Shown piece after piece: positions 145 to 63,110 of a DNA stretch of 64,000 nt. Under the pieces are notes generated by a model. It made no database searches. It was not told the DNA's origin and saw only the letters and a list, made by a program, of their open reading frames with translations. Origin of the DNA: a bacterium (lineage in GTDB: Bacteria; Patescibacteriota; CPR2; UBA1875; JAJYID01); the NCBI GenBank assembly GCA_021787535.1, contig JAJYLR010000003.1:56-64055 (forward strand), in the 5' to 3' direction. The position numbers and the translations under genes were made by a program. Position 1 is the stretch's first letter; each line of letters begins with the position of its first letter.

Positions 145-234
145 TGTCATTCTGAACTTCCTGCCCGTCCGGCAGGCGGGGATTCAGAATCCAGATTTTA
201 TTGGTATAGATTCCGGATCGAGTCCGGAATGACA
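145..234. repeat. Hairpin repeat element, TGTCATTC...GAATGACA family (complete copy)
   Basis: TGTCATTCTGAA...TTCAGAATCCAGA plus ATTCCGGATCGAGTCCGGAATGACA. The GAATGACA end faces the minus-strand gene at 1..135. Confidence 0.6.
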
Positions 235-281
235 AGTCTTGAAAATTGATTGGAAATTGAGAATTGGTCATTGAAAATTTT

Positions 282-1112
282 CTACCCATATTTTTCCTCC
301 AAATAATCTAATGTTTCGCGGAAATTGATTTTTGCCGGGCAGTAGGTGATGCATCTTTTGCAGCTGACGCATCCGGAAAAGCCGTATTCTTTCGGCATTC
401 GCACAAACTTATGATGATACCAGTTGTAGATTCTGTCTCTCAGCTCCGGCCTGAAGTCGTGGCTGGAAATGGCGGCGAAGTCGGCAGTCATGCACGAGTC
501 CCAGCTTCTTTGCCTGCAGCCTTCACATTTCGTAATCCCTTCGATTTTCACGATATCTTCAGTATCGAAACAGTAACACATCGGGCAAACGTAGGAACAG
601 ATGCCGCAACCGAAACATATCTCTGCCAGCTTGTCCCAAATCTTATCTCCTTTTGAGTTTGCCAGAATCTCAGCTCGTTTGTTTTTCGGGTATTTCTTTG
701 ACGGTTTATATTTTTTTCTTATGTCTTTTGATTTGATAAAAAGGTCTGAGTTTGCGTCGACTATTTTCTGGCCTTGTTTCGATCCGACCCAGGCGATATA
801 CTTGTTGTCACCGGTTTTTCGAAGATGAAGATCAAAAGCTTGATCATTCTTGGGATCGAAGTCTTCGCTCATGCTTATTAAAATTGAGTTCTTCCTAGTT
901 ACACCATAAACCTCATCTTGCGTTGGTTCGCCGAAAATTTTATCCAGCCGGTTTATTGCTTTCAAGTCAAAGAGACTGAGGCCAAAAATAACTTTATTTT
1001 TTTTGTCTGATTCTTTCTCGGCTTCTCTATTATTTTTGAATTCCAAGATCGTTTGGCGCGCCGGGAAGAAATACTTTGCCGGCGGCAGAGTCGTGATCGG
1101 GTAGTGAAGCAC
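282..1112 (-). CDS. 4Fe-4S cluster protein, anaerobic sulfite reductase subunit A (AsrA) / sulfhydrogenase beta (HydB)-like
   Basis: C-terminal pattern CFGCGICSYVCPMCYCFD...W.SCM...HDFRPELRDRIYNWYHHKF...GCVSCKRCITYCPAKINF, which parallels the AsrA/HydB Fe-S C-terminus. The frame stays open upstream of the GTG at 1112 to about 1255 with no in-frame ATG, so the true start is uncertain. Confidence 0.55.
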   Translation of the reverse strand: MLHYPITTLPPAKYFFPARQTILEFKNNREAEKESDKKNKVIFGLSLFDLKAINRLDKIFGEPTQDEVYGVTRKNSILISMSEDFDPKNDQAFDLHLRKTGDNKYIAWVGSKQGQKIVDANSDLFIKSKDIRKKYKPSKKYPKNKRAEILANSKGDKIWDKLAEICFGCGICSYVCPMCYCFDTEDIVKIEGITKCEGCRQRSWDSCMTADFAAISSHDFRPELRDRIYNWYHHKFVRMPKEYGFSGCVSCKRCITYCPAKINFRETLDYLEEKYG

Positions 1113-1378
1113 TAGCTTGTCGCCGTCCTCCAGGCGCTTAAACTGAAACTTTGAATATACGGCCTCGTCACGTACCTTGACTGGTCCATATACTTCATAT
1201 TTTTCTTGGAGATTTTTGGCCAGCTCCCGTATGCCGGCTTCTGTAATAGTGTAAATATGCCCTCCAAAGCTTTAATGATAACTAAATTATAATCTAAGAA
1301 TATTGCAACTTCAATTTAAAGATTGAGTTTGCGGTTAAGTTGCTTGGATTTTAAGAATTTTCAGTCTATAATTATCTT

Positions 1379-1585
1379 ATGTGGTTAATACTGGTTTTAT
1401 ACCTATTATTTTTTCTAGTTTGGCTGATTATCTCGGGTTTTACAATTTATCAAACCCTCCATTTCTATGAGCCAAACTCTAAGATGAAGATGATGATCCA
1501 CGCGTATATTTGGTTGAGTGTTTTGATATTAATCGTTACCTTTTATTTGCTATATCGGGTAAATTGGAGCGCTCATATTACCTAA
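1379..1585 (+). CDS. Small two-TM membrane protein (hypothetical)
   Basis: 68-aa ORF with two hydrophobic segments, located directly upstream of the bPH_2 gene. Confidence 0.3.
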   Translation: MWLILVLYLLFFLVWLIISGFTIYQTLHFYEPNSKMKMMIHAYIWLSVLILIVTFYLLYRVNWSAHIT

Positions 1586-1599
1586 ATCTGAGGAAAAAT

Positions 1600-2328: not shown

Positions 2329-2346
2329 TTTTTTAGGAGGGTATGT

Positions 2347-4296
2347 GTGAGAATCAGCGACGAGGAACTAAAACAAATCCTAATCGAAAACCATCTTTTA
2401 AGTGAGGTTAAGTTTAATGATTATCTAAGTGAAGCCAAAGAAAGCAAAGTCCCGCTTTACAACCTTTTAATTATGAAAAAGGTCATCTCTGATCGCGACC
2501 TTGTGAAGTTATATGGAAAAGAAACAGGGATTCCCTATATAGATTTGGCTGATTTTCAAATAGATAAAAAAGTTTTAAAGAATCTCCCTGAGAAAATTGC
2601 CAGAAAATATAATACGATTGTTTTCAGTAAAGAAAAAGACGGCAGATTTTCTCTGGCAATGAGCGACCCCGGGGATATTCAGGCGATTCAGTTTATCAAG
2701 AAAAAATTTGGCAGTAACTTAAGAATTTTTATCACGCCTCAGTCAGACATTGACTTGATTCTTGACCAATACAAGGCGGGTTTCTCTGAGGAAATCTCAA
2801 AGGCCATTGAAGAAAATAAGGAGATATCCGTTGAGGAAGAAGAACTTGAGGAAACCGCTACCGCCGATACCGTCAAAGAAATAGTCCAGGAAGCGCCTAT
2901 TGCAAGGGCGGTTAAAATCATTCTGGAATATGCAGTAAAATCGCGGGCCAGTGATGTGCATATAGAACCAAGGGAAACATTTATTCAGATTAGATATCGT
3001 ATTGATGGCGTGCTCAGGGATACGATGACATTACCTAAACAGATTATGTATTCGATAGTTACAAGAGTGAAGATCCTGTCAAATTTAAGGATTGACGAAC
3101 ATAGAGTCCCTCAAGACGGAAGGATTAAGCTCAAACTTGCCGGTAAAAGCATTTCGATCAGAGTCTCTACCCTGCCGGTTATGGACGGTGAAAAGGTGGT
3201 CATGAGGATTTTAGATGAATCAACTAAGGCAGCTTCTCTTGAAGAGCTGGGATTTCGGGGGCTGGCCCTCAAAGTTATCAAAAGGAATCTTCATCGTCCG
3301 CATGGAATGACTCTTGTAACCGGTCCTACGGGATCAGGAAAGTCGACCACTCTTTATAGTCTGCTGACCTTGCTTAATGATATCGGCGTTAACATTTCCA
3401 CAGTAGAGGATCCCGTGGAGTATCGCATCCCCGGTGTTAATCAAACTCAAGTGAATCCGGCTGTGGGAATGACCTTTGCTTCCGGACTTAGAGCACTGCT
3501 GCGCCAAGATCCGGATGTGATTATGGTTGGGGAAATACGAGATCGGGAAACGGCGGAAATGGCTGTACATGCTTCGCTGACCGGCCACGTAGTTTTATCT
3601 ACTTTACACACAAACTCAGCCATCGGATCTTTGCCAAGATTGGAAGATATGGAAATCGAACCTTTCCTAATCGCTTCAACAGTCAACGATGTCATTGGCC
3701 AGCGGCTGGTCAGAAAGCTTTGTCCTGATTGCAAGCAGCAGTATTCTCTGGATCATAAGGTTTTAGAGCAGCTGATTTGCGATTTCGGGCTCAAAGAGGA
3801 ATTTTTAAAAATAGAGAATGTCCAGAAAGAGAAAAAGAAGCTTTTAAATCTCGGGCTGGAAACAAAAGATATTTCTGCTCTCGCCGGTTTCACAGGAAAG
3901 AAGTCAATCGCGCAGATTCTGGCTGAAAAACCAGAGCTCTTAGATAAGGTCTCTGCCAAAACAGGCCGCGAGGTTCGCGCAGAACTTTTTATCGAAACCG
4001 ACCCCAAAACCTGCCGGCTGAGTTTAGGTAAAATCGATGCATATCATCTAGATCTTTACAAAGCGGTTGGGTGTGCGAAATGTGAACAAACCGGCTACAA
4101 AGGACGGCTCGGCATATATGAAGTGGTGGAAGTGACAGATGAAATCGGTTCTTTAATTGTGCGGAAGGCCTCAGAGGATGAACTGTCGGCTGAAGCCAAA
4201 AAAAACGGGTTTACAAATATGTATCAGGACGGTTTTACCAAAGTTTTAAGCGGCATCACATCAATTGAAGAATTAGTAAGAGTAACTCAAGAATAA
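2347..4296 (+). CDS. pilB: Type IV pilus assembly ATPase PilB (GspE family)
   Basis: GTG start with AGGAGG 9 nt upstream. N-terminal T2SSE_N-like domains, Walker A GPTGSGKST, Asp box, His box, and a CPDC...CAKC tetracysteine motif. Confidence 0.9.
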   Translation: MRISDEELKQILIENHLLSEVKFNDYLSEAKESKVPLYNLLIMKKVISDRDLVKLYGKETGIPYIDLADFQIDKKVLKNLPEKIARKYNTIVFSKEKDGRFSLAMSDPGDIQAIQFIKKKFGSNLRIFITPQSDIDLILDQYKAGFSEEISKAIEENKEISVEEEELEETATADTVKEIVQEAPIARAVKIILEYAVKSRASDVHIEPRETFIQIRYRIDGVLRDTMTLPKQIMYSIVTRVKILSNLRIDEHRVPQDGRIKLKLAGKSISIRVSTLPVMDGEKVVMRILDESTKAASLEELGFRGLALKVIKRNLHRPHGMTLVTGPTGSGKSTTLYSLLTLLNDIGVNISTVEDPVEYRIPGVNQTQVNPAVGMTFASGLRALLRQDPDVIMVGEIRDRETAEMAVHASLTGHVVLSTLHTNSAIGSLPRLEDMEIEPFLIASTVNDVIGQRLVRKLCPDCKQQYSLDHKVLEQLICDFGLKEEFLKIENVQKEKKKLLNLGLETKDISALAGFTGKKSIAQILAEKPELLDKVSAKTGREVRAELFIETDPKTCRLSLGKIDAYHLDLYKAVGCAKCEQTGYKGRLGIYEVVEVTDEIGSLIVRKASEDELSAEAKKNGFTNMYQDGFTKVLSGITSIEELVRVTQE

Positions 4297-4417
4297 ATCT
4301 TGCAATTTCTAAATCCGAATTTCTAATTTCTAAACAAATTCAAATGATCAAAATCCAAAATAATCAAACAAAAATTCCGATTCAAACATTTCACCTTTAA
4401 CATTTAATATTAAAAAT

Positions 4418-5632
4418 ATGGCTAGATTTAAATACACAGGCAAAGATGGGTCAGGCAATATGACCAAAGGTTATGTAAGCGCCTTTTCAGAAGAAGAGGC
4501 AGCTGTACTTTTAGGAAAAAACAAGATTACCCCCATCGTTATTACCAAGGACAATAATATTTTAGTCCGCATTAAAGATATTCATTTGTTTGACCATCTT
4601 TCATTAACCGATAAAATGATGTTTTGCGAGGAATTATCTACTCTCATTAACGCCGGTGTTCCGCTTGCCCAGTCAATAAGCATTATTAAAGAACAGACTC
4701 AAAAGGGAACGATGAAAAAAATCGCTGCCAATCTTCTGGGAGATATAGAAGGGGGCCAGTCGCTCTCGGGGGCGCTTGAAAAACAAGGGAGGTTTTTCTC
4801 TCCGGTGTTTGTGAATATGGTGAAAACCGGTGAAACGAGCGGAACGCTGGACGAAACTTTACGGGATTTAGCTGTGCAAACAGAAAAAGATCATGATCTT
4901 GTCTCGAAGATCAGGGGAGCTATGACTTATCCCGCTGTGATTTTGGTTGTTATGACCGGGGCTATCATCTTTCTTATGGTCAAGGTTGTCCCGGCTATCT
5001 CCGGTCTCTTCGATGAGCTTGGCGCTACGCTTCCTTTGACCACGCGGATTATGATAGCTGCAAGCCGGATCATGGTGCATGACGGCATTTTTCTGGCCAT
5101 CGGCGCGATAGCGGTGATCGCGGGAATATACTTTGCTTTGACCAGGGTTGCGCCTATCCAAAAAAGTTTTCATGCGGCCATTTTAAAAGCCCCGATTATA
5201 GGTAAAATTTCCTTAAGGTTTAATCTGGCTCGATTTTCAAGGACTTTGGGATCGCTCCTTGGAAGCGGTGTGAGTGTCTTGGAGGCACTGGAAATTGTTT
5301 CTCATTCAACCAAAAACGTTATATTTTCAAATGAGATAGAACAAGTCAAAGAAAGAGTAAAAAACGGCGCGCCGCTTGCGGAACCGCTGAAACAGTCTAA
5401 GATTTTCCCGGTCATGGTCTCTCAAATGATCGGCGTTGGAGAAGAAACAGGCAATCTTGACAAAATGCTGATCAAAGTAGCCGAGTTTTATGAGAGGCAG
5501 ATTGAAAGCTTTACCAAAAATCTTTCAAGCATCATTGAGCCGATTATTATGCTCATTGTCGGCGTTGCTGTCGGTTTTATTATTGTTTCTATTATTACTC
5601 CGATTTATCAAGCTACTCAGAACATTAAGTAA
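4418..5632 (+). CDS. pilC: Type IV pilus inner-membrane platform protein PilC (GspF family)
   Basis: About 400 aa with two GspF-like repeats and three TM segments, immediately downstream of pilB. Confidence 0.85.
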   Translation: MARFKYTGKDGSGNMTKGYVSAFSEEEAAVLLGKNKITPIVITKDNNILVRIKDIHLFDHLSLTDKMMFCEELSTLINAGVPLAQSISIIKEQTQKGTMKKIAANLLGDIEGGQSLSGALEKQGRFFSPVFVNMVKTGETSGTLDETLRDLAVQTEKDHDLVSKIRGAMTYPAVILVVMTGAIIFLMVKVVPAISGLFDELGATLPLTTRIMIAASRIMVHDGIFLAIGAIAVIAGIYFALTRVAPIQKSFHAAILKAPIIGKISLRFNLARFSRTLGSLLGSGVSVLEALEIVSHSTKNVIFSNEIEQVKERVKNGAPLAEPLKQSKIFPVMVSQMIGVGEETGNLDKMLIKVAEFYERQIESFTKNLSSIIEPIIMLIVGVAVGFIIVSIITPIYQATQNIK

Positions 5633-5769
5633 AAATGTTGGAAGTGCGGAAACCGTTGGAGATGTTGGATATTAGAAACAAACCCGCGCACCATCTCAAA
5701 GTACGGGGCAGGCAATTCCGACAAGCGAAGCGATCCGCCAATTCTAACAATTCCTGCTTTAATTAATCA

Positions 5770-5799
5770 TTGACATACAGTTTGAAACAAACTTATAAT
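5770..5799 (+). promoter_or_regulatory. Sigma70-type promoter for the major pilin (TTGACA-18-TATAAT)
   Basis: TTGACA at 5770-5775 and TATAAT at 5794-5799, about 40 nt upstream of the pilin start. Confidence 0.5.
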
Positions 5800-5841
5800 G
5801 GCGCTGTAACTTAAAATGGCTATGCCAGAAAGGAGGTGAAA

Positions 5842-6234
5842 ATGTTAAGTAAGCTGCAAAATAAACGAGGTTTTACCTTGATTGAACTTTTGATTGTTGT
5901 CGTTATTTTAGGCGTCCTTATTTTGATTGTTATCGGTGCAACCAGAGGTGATAAAGGCAAGGCAAACGATGCCAAAAGGAAAGCCGACCTCACTCGCATC
6001 CAGAATGCCTTGGAAGATTGTTATTCAGTGCCATCAGGTACAACCGGCGGATATCCGACCAGTTTAAGCGATACCTGTGTTCAACAAAAATTTGATAATA
6101 ACACTGTGCCGACTGATCCAAAAGATGGAGCAAGCTATAGCTATACTACGACAGGTACTCCTCCTACTACCTATAATCTTTCAACCACTGAGATGGAAAG
6201 AGAATCTAATATGACATTGACGCAAAAACAGTAA
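5842..6234 (+). CDS. Type IV major pilin (prepilin-type N-terminal cleavage/methylation domain)
   Basis: MLSKLQNKRGFTLIELLIVVVILGVL matches the class III signal peptide, G/FTLIE. AGGAGG lies 6 nt upstream of the ATG at 5842. A strong promoter sits upstream. Confidence 0.8.
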   Translation: MLSKLQNKRGFTLIELLIVVVILGVLILIVIGATRGDKGKANDAKRKADLTRIQNALEDCYSVPSGTTGGYPTSLSDTCVQQKFDNNTVPTDPKDGASYSYTTTGTPPTTYNLSTTEMERESNMTLTQKQ

Positions 6235-6301
6235 AAGTATTTGTTCTAAAAAACAGTCCTAAGGGGCTGTTTTTTAGTGGGATAAAAGTTATAATAGATA
6301 T

Positions 6302-6691
6302 ATGCGGAGGGGAATCTTAAAAAACAGCCGGGGAGTGACGCTGACTGAGATTATTATCTTGGTGGTGGTTGTTGCTGTTTTTGCTATTACCTTTATTCCG
6401 CTTGTTACTGAAAATATGGTGGCGAATACCAAGGCAAAGACTCAACTTGCCGCTTATGAGGCGGCCCATCAAAAAATGGAGGAGCTTAGAAATACAAGTT
6501 TTGATACTCTTGCAAGCGGCGCATTTCAAACACCTAATGTTCAGGGGGGGAGCGGTACAGTGACGATTACTCCGGATATAAATGGTGACGGACAAGATGA
6601 ACAGGGTATTGTCAAGGCGGATGTTCAGGTGGCTTATCCCGATCGCGGCCAGACGAAAACTGTAACTTTAACGACCTTTATAGCGCAATGA
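6302..6691 (+). CDS. Pilin-like / minor pseudopilin
   Basis: N-terminal GVTLTEIIILVVVVAVFAI resembles a prepilin signal followed by a hydrophobic helix. Confidence 0.5.
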   Translation: MRRGILKNSRGVTLTEIIILVVVVAVFAITFIPLVTENMVANTKAKTQLAAYEAAHQKMEELRNTSFDTLASGAFQTPNVQGGSGTVTITPDINGDGQDEQGIVKADVQVAYPDRGQTKTVTLTTFIAQ

Positions 6692-7266
6692 AAACATTAG
6701 GCCAAAAAGGATTTACCATTATCGAAATGACTATAGCTGTTGTTATTTTAGGCATAATAGTAGTGGTGATCAGCGATATGTATTTAAAGGGCACCATTTC
6801 TTCAAAAACAGAAATGGCGAGGTCTAAGCTGCAGATTGAAGAGAAAAATGCACTTGAAGGAATAACTAACAATGTTACGCTGAGTACAAAAATCGATTCC
6901 GATTACGGCAGCGGCGCATACACGGGAGGGCAACAAACCTTGATTTTAGACTTGCCGGCTATAGACAGCGGCAATAATTTTCTATATAGCGGCAGCCAGA
7001 AAGTCCATGATTATATAATTTATTATCTAAGCGGTTCGGATTTGCATAAGCTTGTTTATTCAAGCGATCCTGATAGCCGGCTGCATTCTGAAGACGGCAG
7101 CGACCAAATATTGCTTTCCGATGTCAAAAGCTTGTCATTTACCTATGATGCTGCTCTGCCAAATAGCGTAACAGTAACAACAAATCTGATAATTCAGGAT
7201 ACTGCCCAAAATCCGCCGCAGGAAGTAAACATGAGCTCAAAAGCAATGAGGAGGAATAGTGACTAG
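6688..7266 (+). CDS. Minor pilin (prepilin-type N-terminal domain)
   Basis: KGFTIIEMTIAVVILGIIVVVI. The gene overlaps its neighbours by 4 nt. Confidence 0.6.
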   Translation: MKTLGQKGFTIIEMTIAVVILGIIVVVISDMYLKGTISSKTEMARSKLQIEEKNALEGITNNVTLSTKIDSDYGSGAYTGGQQTLILDLPAIDSGNNFLYSGSQKVHDYIIYYLSGSDLHKLVYSSDPDSRLHSEDGSDQILLSDVKSLSFTYDAALPNSVTVTTNLIIQDTAQNPPQEVNMSSKAMRRNSD

Positions 7267-8524
7267 CAAGAAATTTTCAATTTTCAATTTTCAATTTTCA
7301 ATGTCCCTGATTTTGCGGCCGCTTAGAAATAGGCAGCTTTTGCCAAGCCGCCAGGGATCAATCTTGGTTCTATTTATTATTGTTCTGTCTGTCATGACTA
7401 CGATCGTTCTGGCCGTTTCGGGGCTTGTTTTAAATAACCGGATTGGAGTTGAGCGGACTTATCAGAAAGACAAAGCTTTAAATATTGCCGAGGCGGGGAT
7501 ACAAAAAGCGCTGTGGGAACTAAAGGGTCATAACCCATCCTATACCGGAGAAACGGGTAATACTTACATTGCGGGCGGGGAATTTGATGTTACAGTCACT
7601 CAAATTGATGCGAACAACGATTACATTACATCAACAGCTTATGTTCCCTCGAAAGCCAATCCTAAATACAAAAAAGCGATCAAAGTTAAAATATCTGATA
7701 CGCCGGTTACTACAAATCCGGCCTTTAGCTACGCTATTCAGGCGGGAGCAGGAGGTATCGATGTGGGCGGATCGAGCGAGGTACATGGCAGTCTTTATTC
7801 TAATGGTGCAATCTCTGTATCAGGCGCATCAGCAACAGTAAATGATCCCGGAGATGCTTGGGCAGTCACAACTATTACCGATCCCAAAGGCGGAATCAAA
7901 GGCACTAAAACGCAAGGAGCCCAGCCGGTAGCTTTGCCGACTATTGACTTGAACCAATGGCGGTCTTTGGCCCAAGCTGGCGGGACCATTACCGGCGACT
8001 ATTCTCCGCCTGCGACCGGTAGTTACACCAATTTTGGACCAAAAGAAATTACGGGGAATTTTTCAATGTCCGGATCAAATCAAAAAATGAATCTAATGGG
8101 GCCTTTGTATATCCACGGCAACCTAAATATTAGCGGTGGCGAATGGAAACTTGATGATTCCTTCGGGTCCAATGGCACGATAGTTTTGGTCGACGGCCAA
8201 ATCAGTATTACCGGAGGCGACTTTCATGGCAATTCCAGCGGATCTTATATTTTATTTATTTCTACTAGTACCGCTAACACTAAAGACAGCGGTTCTGCAA
8301 TATATTATAGAGGCAATGCTAATGGTGAAAAGCTGGCTCTTTATGCATATAATGGAGCGATGACGTTGGCAGGTTCCGGCGAAATTATCGCAATGACCGG
8401 ACAAACCTTGTTTTTAAACGGCAGCGGAGAGATACACTATGACAGCGGCCTGAAGTCCGAACAGTTTGCCGGCGGCCCCGGCGGGACTTGGGTTGTGAAA
8501 GAATGGCAGGAGATATCGCCCTGA
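7259..8524 (+). CDS. PilX-like large minor pilin (PilX N-terminal domain)
   Basis: GTG start after AGGAGG. RQGSILVLFIIVLSVMTTIVLAVSGL resembles PilX_N. The C-terminal region is rich in G, S and T. Confidence 0.55.
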   Translation: MTSKKFSIFNFQFSMSLILRPLRNRQLLPSRQGSILVLFIIVLSVMTTIVLAVSGLVLNNRIGVERTYQKDKALNIAEAGIQKALWELKGHNPSYTGETGNTYIAGGEFDVTVTQIDANNDYITSTAYVPSKANPKYKKAIKVKISDTPVTTNPAFSYAIQAGAGGIDVGGSSEVHGSLYSNGAISVSGASATVNDPGDAWAVTTITDPKGGIKGTKTQGAQPVALPTIDLNQWRSLAQAGGTITGDYSPPATGSYTNFGPKEITGNFSMSGSNQKMNLMGPLYIHGNLNISGGEWKLDDSFGSNGTIVLVDGQISITGGDFHGNSSGSYILFISTSTANTKDSGSAIYYRGNANGEKLALYAYNGAMTLAGSGEIIAMTGQTLFLNGSGEIHYDSGLKSEQFAGGPGGTWVVKEWQEISP

Positions 8525-8733
8525 CGGGAATGACTAATTAACAATTTCTAATGTCTAATCAAATTCAAATGACCAAATTTCAAAAATTGACGTTTATAAA
8601 TTAGGTATTGTTAAGTATTGATTAGACATTAGAAATTAGGATTTAGAAATTACTCATATGAATTGCTTAAATACTTTGGTTTAAATATAATAAAGATAAT
8701 TATAAAAAGATTAGTTAAGTTACCGGAGGGTTT

Positions 8734-9786
8734 TTGCTTAAGCAAGATCTGATTTATAAAGAAAAAGATTGCCTGGGGCTTGATATCGGCGCCAGTTCGG
8801 TTAAAATCGTCCAGCTTAAAAAGAAAAAGTCGCTGACAAAGTTGATGGGCTACGAAAGCAAGGCGCTTCCGGAGAATATCATTATCGAAGGTGTGATTTC
8901 CGAGCCGGAAAAATTGGCTCAAATGATTAAAGGCATGATAAGCGAGACGAAGGAAGGCAAGTTTACTGCAAAAAAAGCCATTGCTTCAATACCAGATGCA
9001 AATGTTTTCACCAGAGTTTTGGAGATGCCGCCTCTTTCCGCTAAGGAACTGAAAGAAGCTCTCATGTGGGAAGCGGATCAGTCAATACCGATGGCTATGA
9101 CTGATCTTGTCATTGATTGGCAGGTCCTCGGCCCGTCTATTACCAAAAAAGGCATGAATGATATCCTGCTTGTTGGGGCGCCGCTTGCGATTGTCAACTC
9201 TTATGTCCAGCTCTTTGACAAACTAGGTCTCCAGCCGGAAGCGATTGAAACTAGTTTGGTCTCAGTTATTCGGGCGCTTGTGTCAAATAAGGAGCGCGAT
9301 GAAGTAATGCTAGTTGTCGATATTGGATCAAGGTCTACAAACTTAGGTTTTTATGATCATACTCTGCGGCTGGCCGACAGTTTGGATTTCGGCGGATTAA
9401 ACTTTACAGATGCGATCAGGGCCGGCGCTCAAGTTGACGAAAAAAAAGCTGAGGAAATGAAAATGAAAATTGGGCTGAAAGATAAAAAAGTCGCCGAAGC
9501 GCTTGATAGTATTCTTGCCAATTTGAAGAGTGAGATGAGCAAAGTTATTAAATATCACGATGAGAGAAATGAAACTAAGACTTCGAAAGTTATTCTTTGC
9601 GGAGGATCTTCGAACCTTATAGGTCTGACAGAATACTTGGCTGAGGCACTGAAAGTAGAGGTTAAGGTCGGAAATCCATGGGTTAATATCGACACTTATC
9701 CTTTAAAGCCCGTGCCGAAAGCCGAAGCTCCTGCATATGCCAATGCTATCGGGCTTTCGCTGAGGGCTATGGAGGCAATAGTATGA
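8734..9786 (+). CDS. pilM: Type IV pilus assembly protein PilM (actin-like ATPase)
   Basis: LGLDIGASSVKIVQL N-terminal actin-fold motif. TTG start after GGAGGG. It is followed by pilN and pilO. Confidence 0.8.
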   Translation: MLKQDLIYKEKDCLGLDIGASSVKIVQLKKKKSLTKLMGYESKALPENIIIEGVISEPEKLAQMIKGMISETKEGKFTAKKAIASIPDANVFTRVLEMPPLSAKELKEALMWEADQSIPMAMTDLVIDWQVLGPSITKKGMNDILLVGAPLAIVNSYVQLFDKLGLQPEAIETSLVSVIRALVSNKERDEVMLVVDIGSRSTNLGFYDHTLRLADSLDFGGLNFTDAIRAGAQVDEKKAEEMKMKIGLKDKKVAEALDSILANLKSEMSKVIKYHDERNETKTSKVILCGGSSNLIGLTEYLAEALKVEVKVGNPWVNIDTYPLKPVPKAEAPAYANAIGLSLRAMEAIV

Positions 9787-17023: not shown

Positions 17024-17063
17024 AAAAATATTAATTTGTCAAAGATTTTTGCGAAAAGGGTAT

Positions 17064-17092
17064 TGACAACTGTATTCGGTATTGCTATATTT
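17064..17092 (+). promoter_or_regulatory. Sigma70 promoter of the hrcA operon (TTGACA-17-TATATT)
   Basis: TTGACA at 17064-17069 and TATATT at 17087-17092, immediately 5' of CIRCE. Confidence 0.6.
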
Positions 17093-17095
17093 TAT

Positions 17096-17122: not shown

Positions 17123-17170
17123 AATCACATCTTGGTGTAGTATGCAGTATACCGTATTGAGTATTGAGGG

Positions 17171-17251
17171 GATTCTGGACAAGCCAGAATGACAAAGGGA
17201 AAGGGATTCCTCCGCTTGCCCCGTCGGACGGGGTTGTCGGTCGGAATGACA
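17171..17251. repeat. Two repeat units (GATTCTGGACAAGCCAGAATGACA + GGATTCCTCCGC...GTCGGTCGGAATGACA) between CIRCE and the hrcA start
   Basis: Hairpin ATTCTGG-acaag-CCAGAAT followed by GACA. The second unit closely resembles the 3' half of the murD insert. Confidence 0.65.
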
Positions 17252-17969: not shown

Positions 17970-18053
17970 CTTTACAAGGGTCCGACCCTTCTAGGGACGA
18001 ATTCTTTGCGAGGGTCGGGCCCTTGTAAAACGGGAGAACAAATCACCTTCTCC

Positions 18054-18087
18054 TGTCATTCCCGCTCAGGCGGGAATCCAGACAAGC
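18054..18087. repeat. Repeat unit TGTCATTCCCGCTCAGGCGGGAATCCAGACAAG
   Basis: Same termini with a different hairpin stem. Lies upstream of grpE. Confidence 0.5.
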
Positions 18088-18141
18088 AATGTTAAATAGT
18101 TAATTATAGAATTTTAAATAAATTTAGAAAGATCAAGAAGT

Positions 18142-18729
18142 ATGAAAGAGAAAGACAAGAAAGCCAAAGGCAAAAAGGAAGACCAACTGGATTCCCGCCG
18201 GAGTTTATCCGACGAAGCTAAAGCGTGGGCGGGTGGGAATGACAAGAAAGAGGTCAGGAATGAAAATATAGAAGCCGAGCATGACAAGGGTCAGACCCTT
18301 GCAATGGAAAATGTTGCTTTGAAGAAGATGCTGCAGCGGGCACAGGCGGATTTTATAAATTACCGCCAGCGTGCAGAGCGGGAGAAGTCAGAAATGGTCG
18401 ATTACGGCAAGCTGGAGACGATTAAGGAGCTTCTGCCGGTATTCGACAACTTCGAACGGGCCAGAAACCATTTCCCGAAGGAGCTGGAGAAGAATGATTG
18501 GGCGCAGGGGATGCTCGCGGTAGAGAAGCAGTTTGTCCAGAAAATGGAAGAAATGGGGATTAAGAGAATCCCGACAGTCGGCGAGCAATTTGATCCAAAT
18601 TTACATGAGGCAATACACATGGAGCCGGCAAAAGGCAAGAAATCGAATGAGATTACCTGCGAATACGAACCGGGATACATATATAAAGATAAAGTTTTAA
18701 GGTATGCAAAGGTAAAGTTGGCAAAATGA
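18142..18729 (+). CDS. grpE: Nucleotide exchange factor GrpE
   Basis: Coiled-coil N-terminus, LLPVFDNFERA motif and a C-terminal beta domain. Confidence 0.8.
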   Translation: MKEKDKKAKGKKEDQLDSRRSLSDEAKAWAGGNDKKEVRNENIEAEHDKGQTLAMENVALKKMLQRAQADFINYRQRAEREKSEMVDYGKLETIKELLPVFDNFERARNHFPKELEKNDWAQGMLAVEKQFVQKMEEMGIKRIPTVGEQFDPNLHEAIHMEPAKGKKSNEITCEYEPGYIYKDKVLRYAKVKLAK

Positions 18730-21575: not shown

Positions 21576-21671
21576 TGTCATCCTCGGACTTGATCCGGGG
21601 ATCCAGACAGTCAGTGGGAAATTGACTGGATCCCCGCCTTCGCGGGAATGACAAAAAGAAGGGGAATGACA
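21576..21671. repeat. Repeat element with nested palindromes (TGTCATCC...CGCGGGAATGACA, GGGGAATGACA)
   Basis: CCGGGGATCC...GGATCCCCG long stem. Two GAATGACA ends. Lies immediately after the dnaK stop. Confidence 0.55.
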
Positions 21672-23253: not shown

Positions 23254-23365
23254 AAGGAATGGCGGGGGTGTAAGGATTTGCAAAAGGGCAGGGCGTTCGC
23301 GCCCCGCCCATTCAATTTAAGAGACAATTTAGATAGAAATTTGGTATAATTTTTATATAGATTCC

Positions 23366-23384
23366 TGTTTTCACGGGAATGACA
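23366..23384. repeat. 3'-end fragment of the repeat (TTCACGGGAATGACA), 11 nt before the dnaJ start
   Basis: Matches CTTCGCGGGAATGACA at 21640-21653. Confidence 0.4.
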
Positions 23385-26785: not shown

Positions 26786-26801
26786 GAATTGTACTTGAAA
26801 A

Positions 26802-26825
26802 GATTCTGGACAAGCCAGAATGACG
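26802..26825. repeat. Repeat unit GATTCTGGACAAGCCAGAATGAC
   Basis: Identical to the unit at 17171-17195. Confidence 0.55.
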
Positions 26826-28784: not shown

Positions 28785-28851
28785 GATTTAATTTTCAATT
28801 TACAATTTGAAATTTTCAGTCGATTATTAAATAATAAATTTTCTAGTAAAG

Positions 28852-28876
28852 GATTCTGGTCAAGCCAGAATGACAG
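28852..28876. repeat. Repeat unit GATTCTGGTCAAGCCAGAATGACA
   Basis: One substitution relative to the 17171 copy. About 60 nt upstream of the M16 peptidase gene. Confidence 0.55.
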
Positions 28877-30194: not shown

Positions 30195-30239
30195 AGTAAA
30201 TCTTTAATTTGAGATTCGAAATTTATAATTTAAAGAAAA

Positions 30240-30264
30240 GATTCTGGTCAAGCCAGAATGACAA
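30240..30264. repeat. Repeat unit GATTCTGGTCAAGCCAGAATGACA overlapping the annotated ndk start
   Basis: The ATG of the GAATGACA motif is in frame with ndk. Confidence 0.55.
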
Positions 30265-56716: not shown

Positions 56717-56796
56717 TGTCATTCTGGCGACGATAGGAGACCAGAATCTAAAGGTTACCACACAAGATACAGATTCTGGACAAGCCAGAATGACAC
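56717..56796. repeat. Composite repeat (TGTCATTCTGGCGACGATAGGAGACCAGAATC ... GATTCTGGACAAGCCAGAATGACA)
   Basis: Left-end and right-end units separated by about 25 nt. About 60 nt upstream of mntH. Confidence 0.6.
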
Positions 56797-58323: not shown

Positions 58324-59058
58324 ATGATCGGAATATTTGACTCAGGGATAGGCGGCCTTTCTTTATACAAAAAAGCCAAGAAAGCAATGTCGGATAAGAC
58401 ATTTATATATTTAGCTGATCAGGATAGCTTTCCTTACGGCGAAAAATCGGAAAAAGAGTTGCGTGCCCTCACTAGGAAAAATATTAAGCTGCTGGAAAAC
58501 TTAGGGGCAAAGGTTGTACTCATTGCTTGCAATAGTGCTACGGTTAGTTCAAGAGACAGGATCAGAAGAGAGTTTGACATTCCGCTTGTCGGGGTTGAGC
58601 CGGCAGTCAAGGTTGTACATGATCTATACAGTAATAAAAAAGCATTAGTCCTTGCCACAGACAGGACTTCTCGCTCGCATTTGAAAAACAAAGCCGCAAG
58701 CTATGGTAATGTCAAAATTATCGGCGCAAACGGCCTAGTGAGTTTAATTGAAGAAAAATTTCCAAATATTCAAGCAAGTGAATTAAAGAATATTCTGGAT
58801 AATAAGATTGATGGAGAAGAAGTCATCGTTCTTGGCTGTACGCATTATCATTTAATCCAAAAGATATTAGAAAGCATATATCCCGATAAGATATTCATCG
58901 CTCCGGAAGAGGCGGTGATAAAGCAGCTCAGTAAATTCTCTGACTTGGCGACAGGCAGCGGGGCGGATGACATCTTTCTGACAACTGGAGATTTGGCAGG
59001 TTTTCAGGTAAAATTAGAGGCGATTATAGGCAGGAAATGTGATGTTAGAAAAATATAA
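58324..59058 (+). CDS. murI: Glutamate racemase
   Basis: IGIFDSGIGGLS, LIACNSAT and VLGCTHY. Confidence 0.85.
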   Translation: MIGIFDSGIGGLSLYKKAKKAMSDKTFIYLADQDSFPYGEKSEKELRALTRKNIKLLENLGAKVVLIACNSATVSSRDRIRREFDIPLVGVEPAVKVVHDLYSNKKALVLATDRTSRSHLKNKAASYGNVKIIGANGLVSLIEEKFPNIQASELKNILDNKIDGEEVIVLGCTHYHLIQKILESIYPDKIFIAPEEAVIKQLSKFSDLATGSGADDIFLTTGDLAGFQVKLEAIIGRKCDVRKI

Positions 59059-60538
59059 AGGCAAAAAAATATTGATTGCGGGGTTTGAAACGGAAGGCAA
59101 AGCTACTTTCGATTTTCTAAGGCAAAACGGCATCAGGGCCGACATTGCCGATCTTCTCACCCCCGTCATTCCCGCCCCCGATCGGGTCGAGGGTAAAGCT
59201 CCGGCGGGAATCCAGCCCAGCCCTACCCAAGTTTTTACGGGAAAAGACTATCTTAATTCTGCTTCGGATTATGATGTTATCTTCCGGACGCCCGGCTTAT
59301 CTCCGCTCAATCCTTTACTTTTAGGGGCGCAGAAGAACGGAACTGAGGTAACAAGCCAGATCAAGCTTTTTATGGAGCTTTGTTCGGCTAAGACCATCGG
59401 CGTTACAGGGACGAAAGGTAAGGGCACAACAGCCACTCTGATTTATGAAATTTTGCAGGCAAGCGGCAAGGATGTGTATCTGGGCGGAAACATTGGGGTG
59501 CCGGCTATTTCCTTGATTGATGAATTAAACAAAGATTCGATCGTTGTCCTGGAGCTTTCCAGCTTTCAGCTCATGGATTTGGACAGGAGTCCAAATATTG
59601 CTGTGGTTTTGGGGATTACAAGCGAGCACCTGGATTATCACAAAAACAGGGATGAATATGTTGATGCCAAGAAATCTATTGTTAAGTTTCAGAGGTCAGA
59701 AGACTTTGCGGTTATCAATACAGATTACGAAACCTCCAGTTCGTTTGCCGGTCTCACTCAAGCAGATATTTTTGAAGTTTCAACCCTCTCCCCTGTCATC
59801 CCGAGCGAAGCGTTAGCGAAGTCGAGGGATCTCTTAAATTATGATGAGAGAAAGGGATTCCTCCGCTCGTCCTTGCAGGAAGTCGGTCGGAATGACAGGA
59901 TTTGCGGCGGTTGTTATGTCGATGAAAATGATGAAATTATCTTGATCGGGAAAAATGAGGAAGAAAAAATTGCTTCATTCAGTGAATTACAGCTTCGCGG
60001 CCGGCATAACCTGGAAAATGTTTGTGCAGCCGTCATGGGGTCATCTCTTGCCGGAGCCGACTTTGAATTAATCCGCAAAACAGTGAGGTCTTTCAAAGGG
60101 CTTGAACATCGGCTCGAGTTTGTTGCCGAAAAAGGCGGAGTTAAATATTATAACGATTCATTCTCGACGACTCCGGAATCAACAATTGCCGCAGTCAAAG
60201 CTTTCGAAGAACCGGTGCTACTCATAGCCGGAGGAAGCGAAAAAGGGTCGGATTATTCGGAAATGAGTGAGGTAATAGCTAAGAAAGCCAAAACTATATT
60301 TCTGATAGGACAAACAGCTAACAAAATAAAAAGACAAATCTTAAAAATAAACCCTAAAGCAGATGTCCGGGAGGGATATGAAAATATGGAAGATTTGGTA
60401 AAAAGGGTGGATAACGCCAGTAAACCCGGAGATGTGGTTGTGCTTTCACCTGGATGCGCCTCTTTTGATATTTTTCAAAATTACAAGGAGCGCGGTGATC
60501 TTTTTAAGGAAGCAGTTGCTAAGTTAATTAGGGATTAG
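59039..60538 (+). CDS. murD: UDP-N-acetylmuramoylalanine--D-glutamate ligase (MurD) carrying an in-frame repeat-element insertion
   Basis: GVTGTKGKGTTATLIYEIL P-loop and Mur ligase middle and C-terminal domains. The residues STLSPVIPSEALAKSRDLLNYDERKGFLRSSLQEVGRNDRI are translated from the repeat at 59794..59897. Confidence 0.8.
   Translation: MMLEKYKGKKILIAGFETEGKATFDFLRQNGIRADIADLLTPVIPAPDRVEGKAPAGIQPSPTQVFTGKDYLNSASDYDVIFRTPGLSPLNPLLLGAQKNGTEVTSQIKLFMELCSAKTIGVTGTKGKGTTATLIYEILQASGKDVYLGGNIGVPAISLIDELNKDSIVVLELSSFQLMDLDRSPNIAVVLGITSEHLDYHKNRDEYVDAKKSIVKFQRSEDFAVINTDYETSSSFAGLTQADIFEVSTLSPVIPSEALAKSRDLLNYDERKGFLRSSLQEVGRNDRICGGCYVDENDEIILIGKNEEEKIASFSELQLRGRHNLENVCAAVMGSSLAGADFELIRKTVRSFKGLEHRLEFVAEKGGVKYYNDSFSTTPESTIAAVKAFEEPVLLIAGGSEKGSDYSEMSEVIAKKAKTIFLIGQTANKIKRQILKINPKADVREGYENMEDLVKRVDNASKPGDVVVLSPGCASFDIFQNYKERGDLFKEAVAKLIRD
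59794..59897. mobile_element. MITE-like repeat copy inserted in-frame within murD
   Basis: TGTCATCCCGAGCGAAGCG...AGGGATTCCTCCGCTCGTCCTTGCAGGAAGTCGGTCGGAATGACA. Its 3' half is near-identical to 17200-17251. Confidence 0.65.
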
Positions 60539-60684: not shown

Positions 60685-61317
60685 GTGCACGAAAAACTTT
60701 TTGGGTCAAAAACCAGAGCCAAACTTTTGAATTTATTTCTCAATAATCAAGATAAATCATATTACGTTCGTGAAATTACCAGGACTATCAACGAACAGAT
60801 CAACTCAGTCAGAAGGGAACTGGCAAATCTAAAATCCTTAGGTCTGGTGGTAAGCCAAGGTAAAAAAGGCAAACTTTACTATAAGGCAAACAAAAAATCT
60901 CCTCTTTATCCAGATCTCAAAAAAATATTTACTAAAACCGCAAAAGAAGAGAAGAAGACCAAAGAAGCTGATCTGGCTGAAACTATCAGGAAGCTGGGTG
61001 AAGTTTCATATGCCGCCAAGATGGGTTATTTTGTTAAAGATAACTCATCGCCAATTGATTTCTTTATTGTTGGAAAAGTCAACAAGCGCCGTTTGAAAAC
61101 TTTTATTGCTCAGCTTGAGAAAGAATCGCGCAAAGAGTTGAACTATTCTGTCATGACCTTGGATGAGTTCGAAAATAGGCGTTTAATGTTTGATAGATTT
61201 ATGACTGAAATTATGGCTAGCCCAAAAGATGTAGTCATCGATTATATCGATGAAACCGGCGAGGGAGAAGGCCTTAGAAGCTCGAAATCTAATAACGAAG
61301 AAAAGGCAGCAGATTAA
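60685..61317 (+). CDS. Hypothetical protein with N-terminal winged-helix-like segment
   Basis: SKTRAKLLNLFLNNQDKSYYVREITRTINEQINSVRRELANLKSLGLV. Confidence 0.4.
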   Translation: MHEKLFGSKTRAKLLNLFLNNQDKSYYVREITRTINEQINSVRRELANLKSLGLVVSQGKKGKLYYKANKKSPLYPDLKKIFTKTAKEEKKTKEADLAETIRKLGEVSYAAKMGYFVKDNSSPIDFFIVGKVNKRRLKTFIAQLEKESRKELNYSVMTLDEFENRRLMFDRFMTEIMASPKDVVIDYIDETGEGEGLRSSKSNNEEKAAD

Positions 61318-62339
61318 TGGAGAAACAACCGTTAAGGTTTGATGTTCCTACACTAACGGTTCTTAAAATAATCGGGATCTTGCTTTTTGTGTTTTTTCTT
61401 TACTTAATTAAAGATGTCCTGGTAATACTTGCAGTCAGCTTTATTGTTTCAGCTGCACTGGAGCCGGCTGTAGACAAACTCCAGAAAAACATGAAAATAC
61501 CAAGATGGATTGGTGTTCTTGCGATTTATTTGCTCTTTATCGGGGTTCTCGCCGTTCTTATAAATCTCATTGTTCCTATCTTAAATGAACAGGTAGGTAC
61601 CTTGATTGCAAACCAAGATACTTATATGAAAGATATTAGCGGCATGATCTCTACTTGGCCCCAGGGAGTCCAGACGTATATTAACACCTCAATACAAAAC
61701 ATCCCCGCAGTTATCCAAAACTGGCAAATCGGGGGACTATCACATAGGGTCTTTGGTTTCTTTTCCGGCGTCGGGTCATTTATAGCGGTACTGGTTATTA
61801 GCGCGTACGTGCTTTCTCTGAAAAACGGCATGAAACAGACTGTATCGGCTTTTGTGCCTGAGTCGAGGCGAGAAATTTTTCTCAAAATATTCAGTGAAAT
61901 CACTAGAAAGGTTAGCTTATGGTTTCGCGGCCAGCTGATCTTATCATTTACAGTAGGACTGGCGACATTTATCGGGCTTTGGATTATGCATATTCCCTTT
62001 GCTTTAATCTTGGCTTTGATTGCCGCTTTTACCGAACTTATTCCAATGGTCGGACCGATACTCGGGGCCATTCCGGCGGTACTTGTGGCTCTTTTTATCA
62101 GTCCGGTTATGGCGATTATTGTGGCTGCATTTTATATATTCGTTCAAGAATTTGAAAGCCATGTCCTAGTTCCGCAAGTTATGAAAAAAGCGGTGGGTTT
62201 AAACCCCGTCATTATTATCTCTTCAATGCTTATCGGAGCAAAACTTCTCGGAATACTAGGCGTGATCTTAGCTGTTCCGGTAGCTTCAAGCGTAGTCGTC
62301 GTTTTGAAGGAATGGCCGGCTATCAAAAACGGCTCATAG
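61317..62339 (+). CDS. AI-2E family transporter (UPF0118/PerM-like)
   Basis: 340 aa with about 8 TM segments and the characteristic GQL...L.LI..F.E..P..GP and AVPV motifs. Confidence 0.65.
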   Translation: MEKQPLRFDVPTLTVLKIIGILLFVFFLYLIKDVLVILAVSFIVSAALEPAVDKLQKNMKIPRWIGVLAIYLLFIGVLAVLINLIVPILNEQVGTLIANQDTYMKDISGMISTWPQGVQTYINTSIQNIPAVIQNWQIGGLSHRVFGFFSGVGSFIAVLVISAYVLSLKNGMKQTVSAFVPESRREIFLKIFSEITRKVSLWFRGQLILSFTVGLATFIGLWIMHIPFALILALIAAFTELIPMVGPILGAIPAVLVALFISPVMAIIVAAFYIFVQEFESHVLVPQVMKKAVGLNPVIIISSMLIGAKLLGILGVILAVPVASSVVVVLKEWPAIKNGS

Positions 62340-62406
62340 TTGTTCGATATACTTGGAGGCGCGGTGCTACTGTGTTATCTTAGAATAAGTAAAAAATAGG
62401 AGAAAA

Positions 62407-63039
62407 ATGGAAATAACACATCTGGGCCATTCGTGTTTTAAGATAGTCGGGAAAAACCTGGCTGTTATAACGGATCCTTTTAATCATCCGCGAATCAGTT
62501 TCAAAATGCCAAAGGTGGAAGCCGATGTAGTTACTATCAGCCATGGTCATCAGGACCACAACTATAAAGAAGGGGTAAAGGGTGACTCTCTGCTTCTGGA
62601 CTCTCCCGGCGAATATGAAGTGAAAGAAAATTTTTTTCAGGGAATTTTATCTTATCACGATGATCAAAAGGGAGAAGAGCGCGGTTTAAATACCATTTTT
62701 ACCATGGAAATAGACGGGATTCATCTCTGCCACTTGGGAGATCTTGGAATAGAGCTTGATAATGACCAAATAGAAGCTATGGATGGCGTGGATATTCTCA
62801 TGATTCCTGTTGGAGGCGTCTATACGATAGACGCTAAAACAGCCGTTAAGGTTATAAACGATGTCAGTCCGAAGATTGTGATTCCTATGCATTACAAGGT
62901 ACCCGGAGGATTTGATAATATCGATCCGGTTGATAAATTTATCAAGGAGATTGGCGAACAGCCAGAAACTCTCGACAAGCTAAAGATTACAAAAAAAGAC
63001 CTTCCGGAAGAGATGAAAGTGGTAGTGCTCAAAAGCTAG
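62407..63039 (+). CDS. MBL-fold metal-dependent hydrolase
   Basis: ISHGHQDH metal-binding motif. Confidence 0.65.
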   Translation: MEITHLGHSCFKIVGKNLAVITDPFNHPRISFKMPKVEADVVTISHGHQDHNYKEGVKGDSLLLDSPGEYEVKENFFQGILSYHDDQKGEERGLNTIFTMEIDGIHLCHLGDLGIELDNDQIEAMDGVDILMIPVGGVYTIDAKTAVKVINDVSPKIVIPMHYKVPGGFDNIDPVDKFIKEIGEQPETLDKLKITKKDLPEEMKVVVLKS

Positions 63040-63047
63040 ATTCATTG

Positions 63048-63110
63048 TGTCATTCTGGCTTGTCCAGAATCTCTATTTTGTCATTCCACGTCTGATTCGG
63101 GATCTAAAAT
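63048..63110. repeat. Two left-end repeat units (TGTCATTCTGGCTTGTCCAGAATC; TGTCATTCCACGTCTGATTCGGGATC)
   Basis: Lies downstream of the MBL hydrolase gene. Confidence 0.5.

Follow-up and report, generated by a model that had tools for sequence, protein, structure and literature searches.

The 64-kb window analysed here, which is the whole stretch read from contig JAJYLR010000003.1, carries among its genes hrcA, grpE, dnaK, dnaJ, ndk, murD, a tRNA-Lys gene and an M16 peptidase gene, and scattered between and within these lies a family of short hairpin-forming repeats. The DnaK protein of the window has its nearest named relatives in "candidate division WS5" (93-94% identity), which places the source in a WS5-like lineage of the Candidate Phyla Radiation (CPR, Patescibacteria). 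The original prediction, made from the letters alone, had described the repeats as a genome-specific family of miniature inverted-repeat transposable elements (MITEs) or REP-like hairpins bounded by 8-nt terminal inverted repeats (TIRs). We found this family to be real, strongly non-random and correctly spotted, but mis-described: it probably belongs with the Neisseria Transformation Sequence (NTS), the target of a small nuclease.

All 11 places listed earlier contain the motif. The 8-mer TGTCATTC/GAATGACA was counted 18 times; dinucleotide shuffles of the window gave 2.15 +/- 1.61, none of 100 reaching 18. A loose hairpin-aware detector returned 33 sites against 8.3 +/- 2.6 in shuffles. The subset sharing an ATYC...GRAT-C stem base occupies 13 places and comprises 19 full units and a half unit, including two units (18187-18244 and 59164-59215) that were absent from the first list. 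Lone 8-mers at 39724-39731 and 40419-40426 have no hairpin partner; they are outside the family and fit the chance expectation of about 2. Sixteen of the 20 units are intergenic, though only about 18% of the window is. The units were first said to lie mostly in 5′ intergenic regions; they are in fact placed both upstream and downstream of genes, and their orientation relative to transcription is mixed.

Each unit is one asymmetric hairpin, found on either strand, that reads 5′-YGTC, then ATYC, variable stem, loop, variable stem and GRAT, then C(Y)-3′. A logo of the 19 full units gave G2, T3, C4, A5, T6 and C8, together with G-4, A-2, T-1 and C+1, as invariant positions: in all 19, G, T, C, A and T are fixed on the 5′ side and G-R-A-T-C on the 3′ side. 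The 10 nt upstream of these 19 units are pyrimidine-rich and nearly G-free. As predicted, the commonest stem is ATTCTGG-N5-CCAGAAT (type A hereafter), present in seven units and, with a 13-nt loop, in an eighth; longer units with ATTCC...GGAAT and ATCCC...GGGAT outer stems are called types D and E. The postulated TIRs, on the other hand, do not exist as such. A search of the window for TGTCATTC-N(5-35)-GAATGACA gave 0 matches, and the two ends of a single unit differ, being YGTCATYC and GRATC. The 8-mers are found together only at converging unit pairs (145/234, 21576/21653, 56717/56795 and 59794/59897), that is at only 4 of the 13 places, each of them a pair of independent units. The apparent TGTCATTC...GAATGACA termini therefore result from the convergent pairing of units, an orientation also seen around the ssn gene described below.

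Both folding and covariation support a selected hairpin. The five shortest units fold as single-stranded DNA (ssDNA) into the expected structure (z -3.3 to -4.9), two long units gave z -2.3 and -2.9, and convergent doublets form long composite DNA hairpins (z -3.8 to -5.8); the unit at 59164 is weak (z -0.6). The earlier remark that longer copies hold nested palindromes was also supported. For covariation, 384 units from 949 kb (the window and all fetched loci) were trimmed to flank and outer stem, leaving 135 distinct sequences. Stem cells were paired in 93.2% of cases against 79.9% in shuffles, and double-sided changes numbered 141 against 48.5, pairs 1-5 being forced by the detector and hence no independent evidence in these figures. 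None of 500 shuffles matched the observed pairing, double-sided changes or covariation score, and shifting the partner by one column lowered pairing to 40-56%. Pairs 6 and 7, which the detector leaves free, were each paired in 103 of the 135 sequences, with six and five standard pair types respectively. The stem interior thus covaries while loop length is free. The description as a REP-like hairpin family with covarying stems holds to this extent, and an Rfam search of the window matched no family to the units at the gathering threshold, returning only five tRNAs.

The NTS, CGTCATTCCCGCGMAVGCGGGAATCYRG, belongs to a broader class termed the "Ssn-related motif" (SRM) (Nat Commun 2025, PMC11893778). 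Its partner SsnA, a 94-aa single-domain GIY-YIG protein, binds and cuts the NTS hairpin only as ssDNA and in one orientation only; the base most critical for binding is the C just 3′ of the palindrome, cleavage depends most on the three bases (GTC) 5′ of it, and changes of loop identity as well as loop extensions are tolerated (PMC11893778). Two window units, TGTCATTCCCGCTCAGGCGGGAATCCAGA (18054) and TGTCATTCCCGCGAAGGCGGGGATCCAG (21626), match the NTS and are near-identical to it. Moreover, the positions invariant in the window are those found critical in the published mutagenesis (GTC on the 5′ side for cutting, C on the 3′ side for binding), which argues for an SRM/NTS identity. The window repeats are, with high probability, SRM/NTS hairpins, the recognition and cleavage signal of an Ssn-family GIY-YIG nuclease when single-stranded. 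They share with the published motif the asymmetric hairpin (C/T)GTC-ATTCC...GGAAT-C(C/T)(A/G)G with its invariant positions, some copies near the NTS consensus, a mostly intergenic placement, strong enrichment over shuffles and a hairpin-ssn-hairpin cassette with convergent units. They differ in their WS5-like CPR/Patescibacteria host, in a dominant stem and types D and E that fall outside the published pattern, in the lack of an ssn gene in the window, and in the 3-4 of 20 units lying in frame in genes, whereas 2% of units were reported as coding in N. meningitidis (PMC11893778). The dRS3 element of the neisserial intergenic mosaic elements (NIME; ATTCCC-N8-GGGAAT) is also alike, in that the 18054 and 21626 units hold a dRS3-like core or near match and form part of mosaic intergenic arrays. 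However, dRS3 is a symmetric 20-mer, whereas oriented flanks are conserved here and most stems are not CCC/GGG.

In genomes with SsnA the gene typically has the motif on both sides, as NTS-ssnA-NTS (PMC11893778). This arrangement was found in relatives of the window, whose loci are designated below by L-numbers. In the close relative L121 (L085/L121, metagenome-assembled genome DBS2-1.bin143), which is syntenic with the window, the order is hrcA, type-E unit (+), a 96-aa gene, type-D unit (-), another unit, grpE and dnaK. The product of this gene has PF01541 as its sole domain (E = 3.8e-16), and the proteins of relatives measure 92-96 aa, in keeping with the single-domain Ssn nucleases of fewer than 150 aa. 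L120 and L122 share the unit(+)-ssn-unit(-) arrangement of L121 in the hrcA-grpE slot, L119 has a PTPS gene there, and the window has just two units, 18054(+) and 18187(-). L122, which has ssn, and L123, an ENA twin of the window, come from one metagenome assembly (ERZ27233565); the ssn-present and ssn-absent states therefore co-occur in one sample.

A wider search returned 1,207 Ssn-like homologues at E <= 1e-10, of which the best 120 are almost all 85-123 aa long with PF01541 as sole precomputed domain. In all loci, the close Ssn homologues have a convergent unit pair around them, with gaps of 3-24 nt. The unit(+)-ssn-unit(-) order was seen in eight independent loci (L120, L121, L024, L054, L101, L129, L131 and L132), three of which (L129, L131 and L132) had been fetched because they encode Ssn and the other five had not. 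Types E and D bracket the gene in L120 and L121, type D stands on both sides in L129, L131 and L132, and type A is used in L024 and L054; in all cassettes of this clade type D lies 3′ of ssn, type E lying 5′ of it in L120 and L121. In an unbiased bracket test, 11 open reading frames (ORFs) were tightly enclosed by a convergent pair. Eight of these, from eight loci, encode the GIY-YIG proteins (about 90-96 aa), three are pieces of ordinary genes, and there was no transposase among the 11. Unit pairs in other orientations enclose unrelated housekeeping genes. No gene other than the Ssn-type GIY-YIG gene (about 95 aa) is found repeatedly inside a convergent pair, whether in close relatives or in unrelated phyla. 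Its homologues, sharing 69-74% identity, occupy different slots, between a xerC-like gene and comEC, between DUF3467 and comEA-like genes and between tpi and fba, besides the slot between hrcA and grpE, a distribution that fits a mobile cassette.

Two of these neighbourhoods concern competence genes. In L129, a WS5-like contig whose metagenome sample also contains the window's population, Ssn (4001-4291) adjoins comEC (DUF4131 + Competence + Lactamase_B), and in L131 it (4001-4282) adjoins a comEA-like HHH_3 protein.

Several units lie in the chaperone region of the window. Upstream of hrcA, a type-A unit (17168..17194, -; TGTC ATTCTGG cttgt CCAGAAT C; z -4.31) is placed between a CIRCE operator (17095-17118) and the hrcA start (17259); it has an orthologous copy in L119 and none in L120 or L121. 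It is followed by a long type-D unit (17202..17251, -; TGTC ATTCC gaccgac...gcgga GGAAT CCC; z -2.25), the hairpin type that brackets ssn genes in relatives. The hrcA-grpE intergenic slot (17970..18141) contains no gene in the window. On the left side of this slot, which has ssn in relatives, stands the canonical NTS-like unit 18054..18081 (+; TGTC ATTCCCGC tcag GCGGGAAT CCAGA; z -4.89), and on the right side of this empty ssn slot a long unit (18187..18244, -; TGTC ATTCCC ... GGGAAT CCAG). A convergent doublet follows dnaK: its left half (21576..21606, +; TGTC ATCCTCGGA cttga TCCGGGGAT CCAGA; z -3.34) starts 9 nt after the dnaK stop, and its right half is a canonical unit (21626..21653, -; TGTC ATTCCCGC gaag GCGGGGAT CCAG). 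Next to it, 21654..21671 (-) is a half unit consisting of the 5′ half alone (TGTCATTCCCC), without its own partner arm. A unit with one stem mismatch (23357..23384, -; TGTC ATTCC cgtgaaaaca GGAAT C) separates a promoter-like site (23321-23350) from the dnaJ start (23396).

The CIRCE-like operator itself (TTAGCACTC-N9-GAGTGC) follows a strong promoter-like site (17063-17091), precedes hrcA and is conserved in all four relatives; two SRM units stand between it and the hrcA start codon.

At the left end of the window, downstream of a Fer4 gene (282-1112, -), a convergent doublet at 145-234 is made of a long SRM-type unit (145..194, +; TGTC ATTCTGAA ... TTCAGAAT C; z -2.85) and a shorter one (206..234, -; TGTC ATTCCGGA ctcga TCCGGAAT C; z -3.33). 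Single type-A units on the minus strand are located 13 nt upstream of the tRNA-Lys gene, which is itself on the minus strand at 26710-26785 (26799..26825; CGTC ATTCTGG cttgt CCAGAAT C), upstream of the M16 peptidase gene starting at 28935 (28849..28875) and upstream of ndk (30237..30263). The M16 spacer holds two long-loop units in L121; L119 has no such spacer. Between a DUF3048 gene and an Nramp gene, a type-A stem with a 13-nt loop (56717..56751, +) and a type-A unit (56769..56795, -) form a convergent doublet with z -5.77. The last units, in tandem, are a type-A unit (63048..63074, +) that starts 9 nt after the stop of a lactamase-B-fold gene and the unit 63079..63107 (+; TGTC ATTCC acgtctgattc GGGAT C). 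In L121 the counterpart of the 63048 unit has decayed to CTTCATTCTGG...CCAGAATC with an expanded loop, and that of the 63079 unit has decayed as well.

A single copy had been reported inside a coding sequence; three units at two sites of murD are in frame, with a possible fourth in the N-terminus of grpE. The product of murD (59039..60538, +; TIGR01087, E = 7.6e-117) has 499 aa and so exceeds the profile (441 positions), the L121 protein (457 aa) and most orthologues (about 455 aa). At the first site, the unit 59164..59215 (+; CGTC ATTCCCGCC cccgatcgggtcgagggtaaagctcc GGCGGGAAT CC) is translated as VIPAPDRVEGKAPAGIQ, which is MurD residues 43-59, an in-frame insert of +6 aa. At the second site, about 35 extra residues after VSTLS are encoded by a 104-bp element (59794-59897; z -3.83 for the whole insert). 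This consists of a type-E unit at its left end (59794..59834, +; TGTC ATCCC gagcgaagcg...gtcga GGGAT C), an 18-nt spacer and a type-D unit at its right end (59853..59897, -), the two types found on either side of ssn in L120 and L121. The spacer and a cassette leader with its ssn start codon are identical at 21 of 27 positions. These resemblances suggest that the element could be an ssn cassette without its gene, a MITE-like derivative. The MITE label survives for this one composite copy, which looks like a gene-less cassette derivative; for the family at large it fails, as true TIRs are absent and no target-site duplication was seen at the one clean filled/empty site.

Most MurD orthologues carry neither insert. 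Two orthologues (P0122 and P0123) have different unit-derived inserts at the same loop as the 104-bp element, and doublet-derived inserts (VIPAQAGIY...LDSRLRGND) are found at the N-terminal site of P0123 and P0126. In an AlphaFold2 model of the window MurD the mean pLDDT, the confidence score of the model, is 79 and falls below 50 only at residues 47-59 and 250-285; since these segments coincide with the inserts, the model predicts that the inserts are disordered loops and that the fold is intact. The long-loop unit of the 59164 type is also in frame in recG (L131, a WS5 genome) and at the second murD site of P0122 and P0123. In 4 of 6 metagenomic occurrences it lies inside open frames of 633-744 aa, always reading VIPAPD(R/Q)VEGKAPAGIQ. 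As for grpE, if the gene starts at 18142, the 18187-18244 unit may be translated in frame as QLDSRRSLSDEAKAWAGGND (...LDSR...GGND...), judging from the reading frame. That start is indicated by the ORF and by a Lys-rich N-terminus like those of relatives, and in L119 the called grpE contains a unit at the corresponding position. The window thus has 3-4 coding units among 20.

The murD units recall Rickettsia palindromic elements (RPEs), palindromic repeats of about 100-150 bp that lie in frame in protein-coding genes and add surface peptide segments without destroying the host protein. The likeness, in-frame insertion with the host fold retained, is one of behaviour. A link between RPEs and SRMs is possible, given that Rickettsia is among the SRM-rich genera (PMC11893778).

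Convergence is the dominant higher-order arrangement. Among adjacent units with a gap of up to 80 nt, 117 pairs are convergent, 15 tandem and 5 divergent; the median spacer is 17 nt, and the halves of 45 of the 117 convergent doublets differ in stem type. Turnover can be followed at individual sites. Upstream of ndk, L119 has no unit, the window has a minimal one, and L121 has one in which the stem is unchanged and the loop measures 31 nt. Behind dnaK a doublet is present in all four genomes, with a different stem interior in each. Target-site duplication, which a MITE would be expected to leave, was looked for by comparing the filled ndk site (window and L121) with the empty one (L119), the single clean site available, and none was visible. 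In L121, units at 18125-18177, 16702-16752 and 4523-4600 have the outer stem of the minimal window units and 29-31-nt loops with palindromes of their own. As these orthologues keep the outer stem and carry palindromic loops, the unit loop seems to be a site of secondary insertion or expansion.

The family had been proposed to be confined to this genome, which it is not. At least 118 stretches of species-representative genomes contain an exact copy of the 24-mer TGTCATTCTGGCTTGNCCAGAATC; the hosts, among the matches listed, include Nitrospirota/Thermodesulfovibrionales, Gammaproteobacteria, many Patescibacteria classes, Bacteroidota, Ignavibacteria, Nitrospinota, Omnitrophota and Desantisbacteria. 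The units are unusually dense in this CPR bacterium. To our knowledge, metagenome-assembled CPR genomes are mostly absent from the NCBI reference/representative RefSeq set. It is this set of genomes that was searched in the published survey, which, besides those of Neisseria, reported NTS-like repeats from Rhizorhabdus wittichii and Wolbachia pipientis, and in which species with over 300 SRM elements included Rickettsia, Wolbachia and Sphingomonas (PMC11893778). A literature search on peptide signatures of translated units (VIPAQAGIQ, LDSRLRGND and others) found no papers, and a search for Ssn work found none beyond PMC11893778.

On the SRM/NTS interpretation, a cognate Ssn, encoded elsewhere in the genome or now lost, would nick ssDNA just 5′ of forward-oriented units. 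Units and doublets would spread with unit-ssn-unit cassettes or as deletion derivatives of them. As in N. meningitidis, the trimming of incoming or exposed ssDNA could modulate the recombination of DNA that has been taken up. A transformation-limiting role like the one shown in Neisseria is compatible, by analogy, with the fact that two ssn neighbours are DNA-uptake genes and that the window has type IV pilus proteins. CPR bacteria are thought to depend on DNA uptake; with ssn beside comEC and comEA in relatives, an ssDNA nuclease may therefore matter for imported DNA. It is also possible, although we propose this only tentatively, that the CPR unit-ssn-unit cassette is genuinely mobile between slots, decays to gene-less doublets (the commonest repeat form) and inserts in frame into essential genes, the coding-compatible unit VIPAPD(R/Q)VEGKAPAGIQ recurring in murD, recG, a ligase-like gene and others. 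If so, these data would be the first comparative evidence for a mobility only hypothesised in PMC11893778, and the cassette would be a source of peptide insertions in CPR proteins.

Several points weigh against the SRM/Ssn interpretation and its extensions. Within the window, tblastn with a GIY-YIG consensus probe and with a real WS5 Ssn found no ssn or GIY-YIG gene, the part of the source genome that was read being the 64-kb window and about 6.5 kb beyond its end (L123). The strict published search pattern, HGTCWY-N(0-2)-YYVSBRH-N(0-5)-WNVSBRG-N(0-2)-RNCYNB, fits only 2 of the 19 units, 21576 and 21626, plus one dubious site (0.21 in shuffles). Type A departs from it at a single degenerate position, and the loops of types D and E are too long for it; nonetheless, all three directly bracket ssn genes in other loci. 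The Ssn-like proteins of WS5 are putative members of the Ssn family (CDD cd10448); their nearest solved structures are the UPF0213 proteins 1zg2 and 1ywl, and NCBIfam and PADLOC gave no specific family for them. The similarity of the murD spacer to the cassette leader is short and AT-rich (21/27). Finally, the link to competence would follow from analogy and gene neighbourhood only, and cleavage and transposition are themselves extrapolated here.

The main live alternative, which we consider unlikely, is that the units are orphan relics: ssn would have been lost in this lineage, and the units would persist neutrally, or through side-effects of their RNA or DNA structure, with no nuclease partner. 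The window does lack ssn at a slot filled in L120, L121 and L122, it contains a half unit (21654-21671) and a stem mismatch (23357), and decay occurs in the clade, as in the L121 orthologues of the 63048 and 63079 units. However, nearly all 19 units keep every invariant position, which is unexpected under long neutral decay. A SsnA homologue is present in 81% of genomes with more than 200 SRMs (PMC11893778), and the Ssn homologue P0245, encoded beside comEC on a same-sample WS5-like contig, could belong to this very genome. Action at the RNA level, as intrinsic terminators, mRNA-stabilising 3′ hairpins or 5′-leader regulatory structures, is suggested by the units directly following the stop codons of dnaK, the lactamase-B-fold gene and hrcA, and by five units placed between promoter-like sites and starts (hrcA, dnaJ, ndk, M16 and tRNA-Lys). 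We regard it as improbable, in view of the mixed orientation, the in-frame units inside genes, the lack of an Rfam match and conserved flanks that are strand-asymmetric as an ssDNA nuclease requires. A terminator role was rejected by a scan of 16.5-31.5 kb, where only 1 of 11 units was terminator-like and that one on the wrong strand; secondary effects of units on transcript leaders may occur.

Explanations in terms of other mobile elements fare less well. A classical MITE, with 8-nt TIRs, a DDE transposase acting in trans and target-site duplications, could account for the convergent doublets, which resemble TIR-bounded elements of 80-105 bp, and an IS1595-family transposase lies 155 nt from a unit in L121. 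Most copies, however, are single units with one "terminus" only, the clean ndk site shows no duplication, the doublet halves differ in stem type as often as counted above, and the units bracket GIY-YIG genes and no transposase in any locus, none adjoining a unit in the window either. The MITE reading is thus largely refuted and highly improbable. Correia elements (CREE) of Neisseria are likewise short, abundant and intergenic with an inverted-repeat-bounded look, but their 26-bp TIRs, TA target duplication and promoter and integration host factor (IHF) features were not seen here. The repetitive extragenic palindromes of Enterobacteria and Pseudomonas (REP, with their mosaic and doublet forms BIME and REPIN), mobilised by the RAYT protein, a Y1 transposase of the IS200/IS605 type, follow the same logic: an asymmetric hairpin with a conserved 5′ tetranucleotide, intergenic placement, predominant inverted doublets, a bracketed single-copy gene and ssDNA recognition. 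The analogy is noted in PMC11893778. A system of this kind is nevertheless barely tenable here, since the enclosed gene encodes a GIY-YIG nuclease in 8/8 recurrent cases and never an HUH Y1 transposase. We know of no transposition chemistry for Ssn. Just as little credence can be given to the idea that the units serve a site-specific recombinase or filamentous phage as attachment sites, a function proposed for Neisseria dRS3: the NTS contains dRS3, a target of phage recombinase in Neisseria (PMC11893778), and a tyrosine recombinase gene adjoins ssn in L129, but no integrase or prophage adjoins any window unit, and viral contigs rarely have the 24-mer (5 stretches in 2.9 million contigs).

With the SRM/NTS interpretation preferred, the repeats pass from an unknown genome-specific MITE to a known cross-phylum nuclease target site and are a new lineage-level instance of the recently described SRM/Ssn kind. 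Modestly new are the stem and loop variants that lie outside the published pattern yet bracket ssn genes, the comparative evidence for cassette gain or loss and for a gene-less derivative, and the recurrent in-frame insertion into essential genes of CPR bacteria. Two populations from the same sample differ in the hrcA-grpE ssn cassette, and one of them has an apparently gutted cassette in murD; this natural comparison makes the spread of NTS/SRM repeats directly testable. For annotators, the VIPA...AGIQ and LDSRLRGND peptides offer guidance on spurious or extended ORFs that derive from repeats.

Other features of the window and its relatives were recorded. A type IV pilus cluster spans 2347-11238 and includes a PilB-type ATPase, with PilN and PilO assigned by orthology with L119; a separate pilin-like gene (26935-27432) encodes an N-terminal methylation motif. 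Between grpE and dnaK lies an HNH homing-endonuclease-like gene (18726-19412, +; two HNH_repeat domains and HNH, E = 9e-26 and 3e-11), and relatives have unrelated small ORFs in this slot. The hrcA-grpE-dnaK operon therefore appears to be a hotspot of selfish insertion. A further palindrome family, (A)AGGGTCNGACCCT(T), unrelated to the SRM units, has three copies in the window (17977-17989, 18011-18023 and 18287-18299) against 0.09 expected. It was also found in L119 (12622), L121 (11941/11957/13294/13318), L120 and L132, often as inverted pairs and often beside SRM units in the intergenic regions of the clade.

In L121 the block from murD to the lactamase-B gene (59-63.5 kb in the window) lies directly upstream of hrcA (17 kb in the window), which indicates a rearrangement between the L121 and window lineages; an IS1595-family DDE transposase and a type-A unit are located at the junction of this block with hrcA (L121 5322-6140). 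The ENA twin contig k141_1432381 (74 kb) starts at about window position 19601, the start of dnaK, and extends about 30 kb past the window end. Its assembly break falls at the variable hrcA-grpE-HNH region, a point of difference between co-occurring strains.

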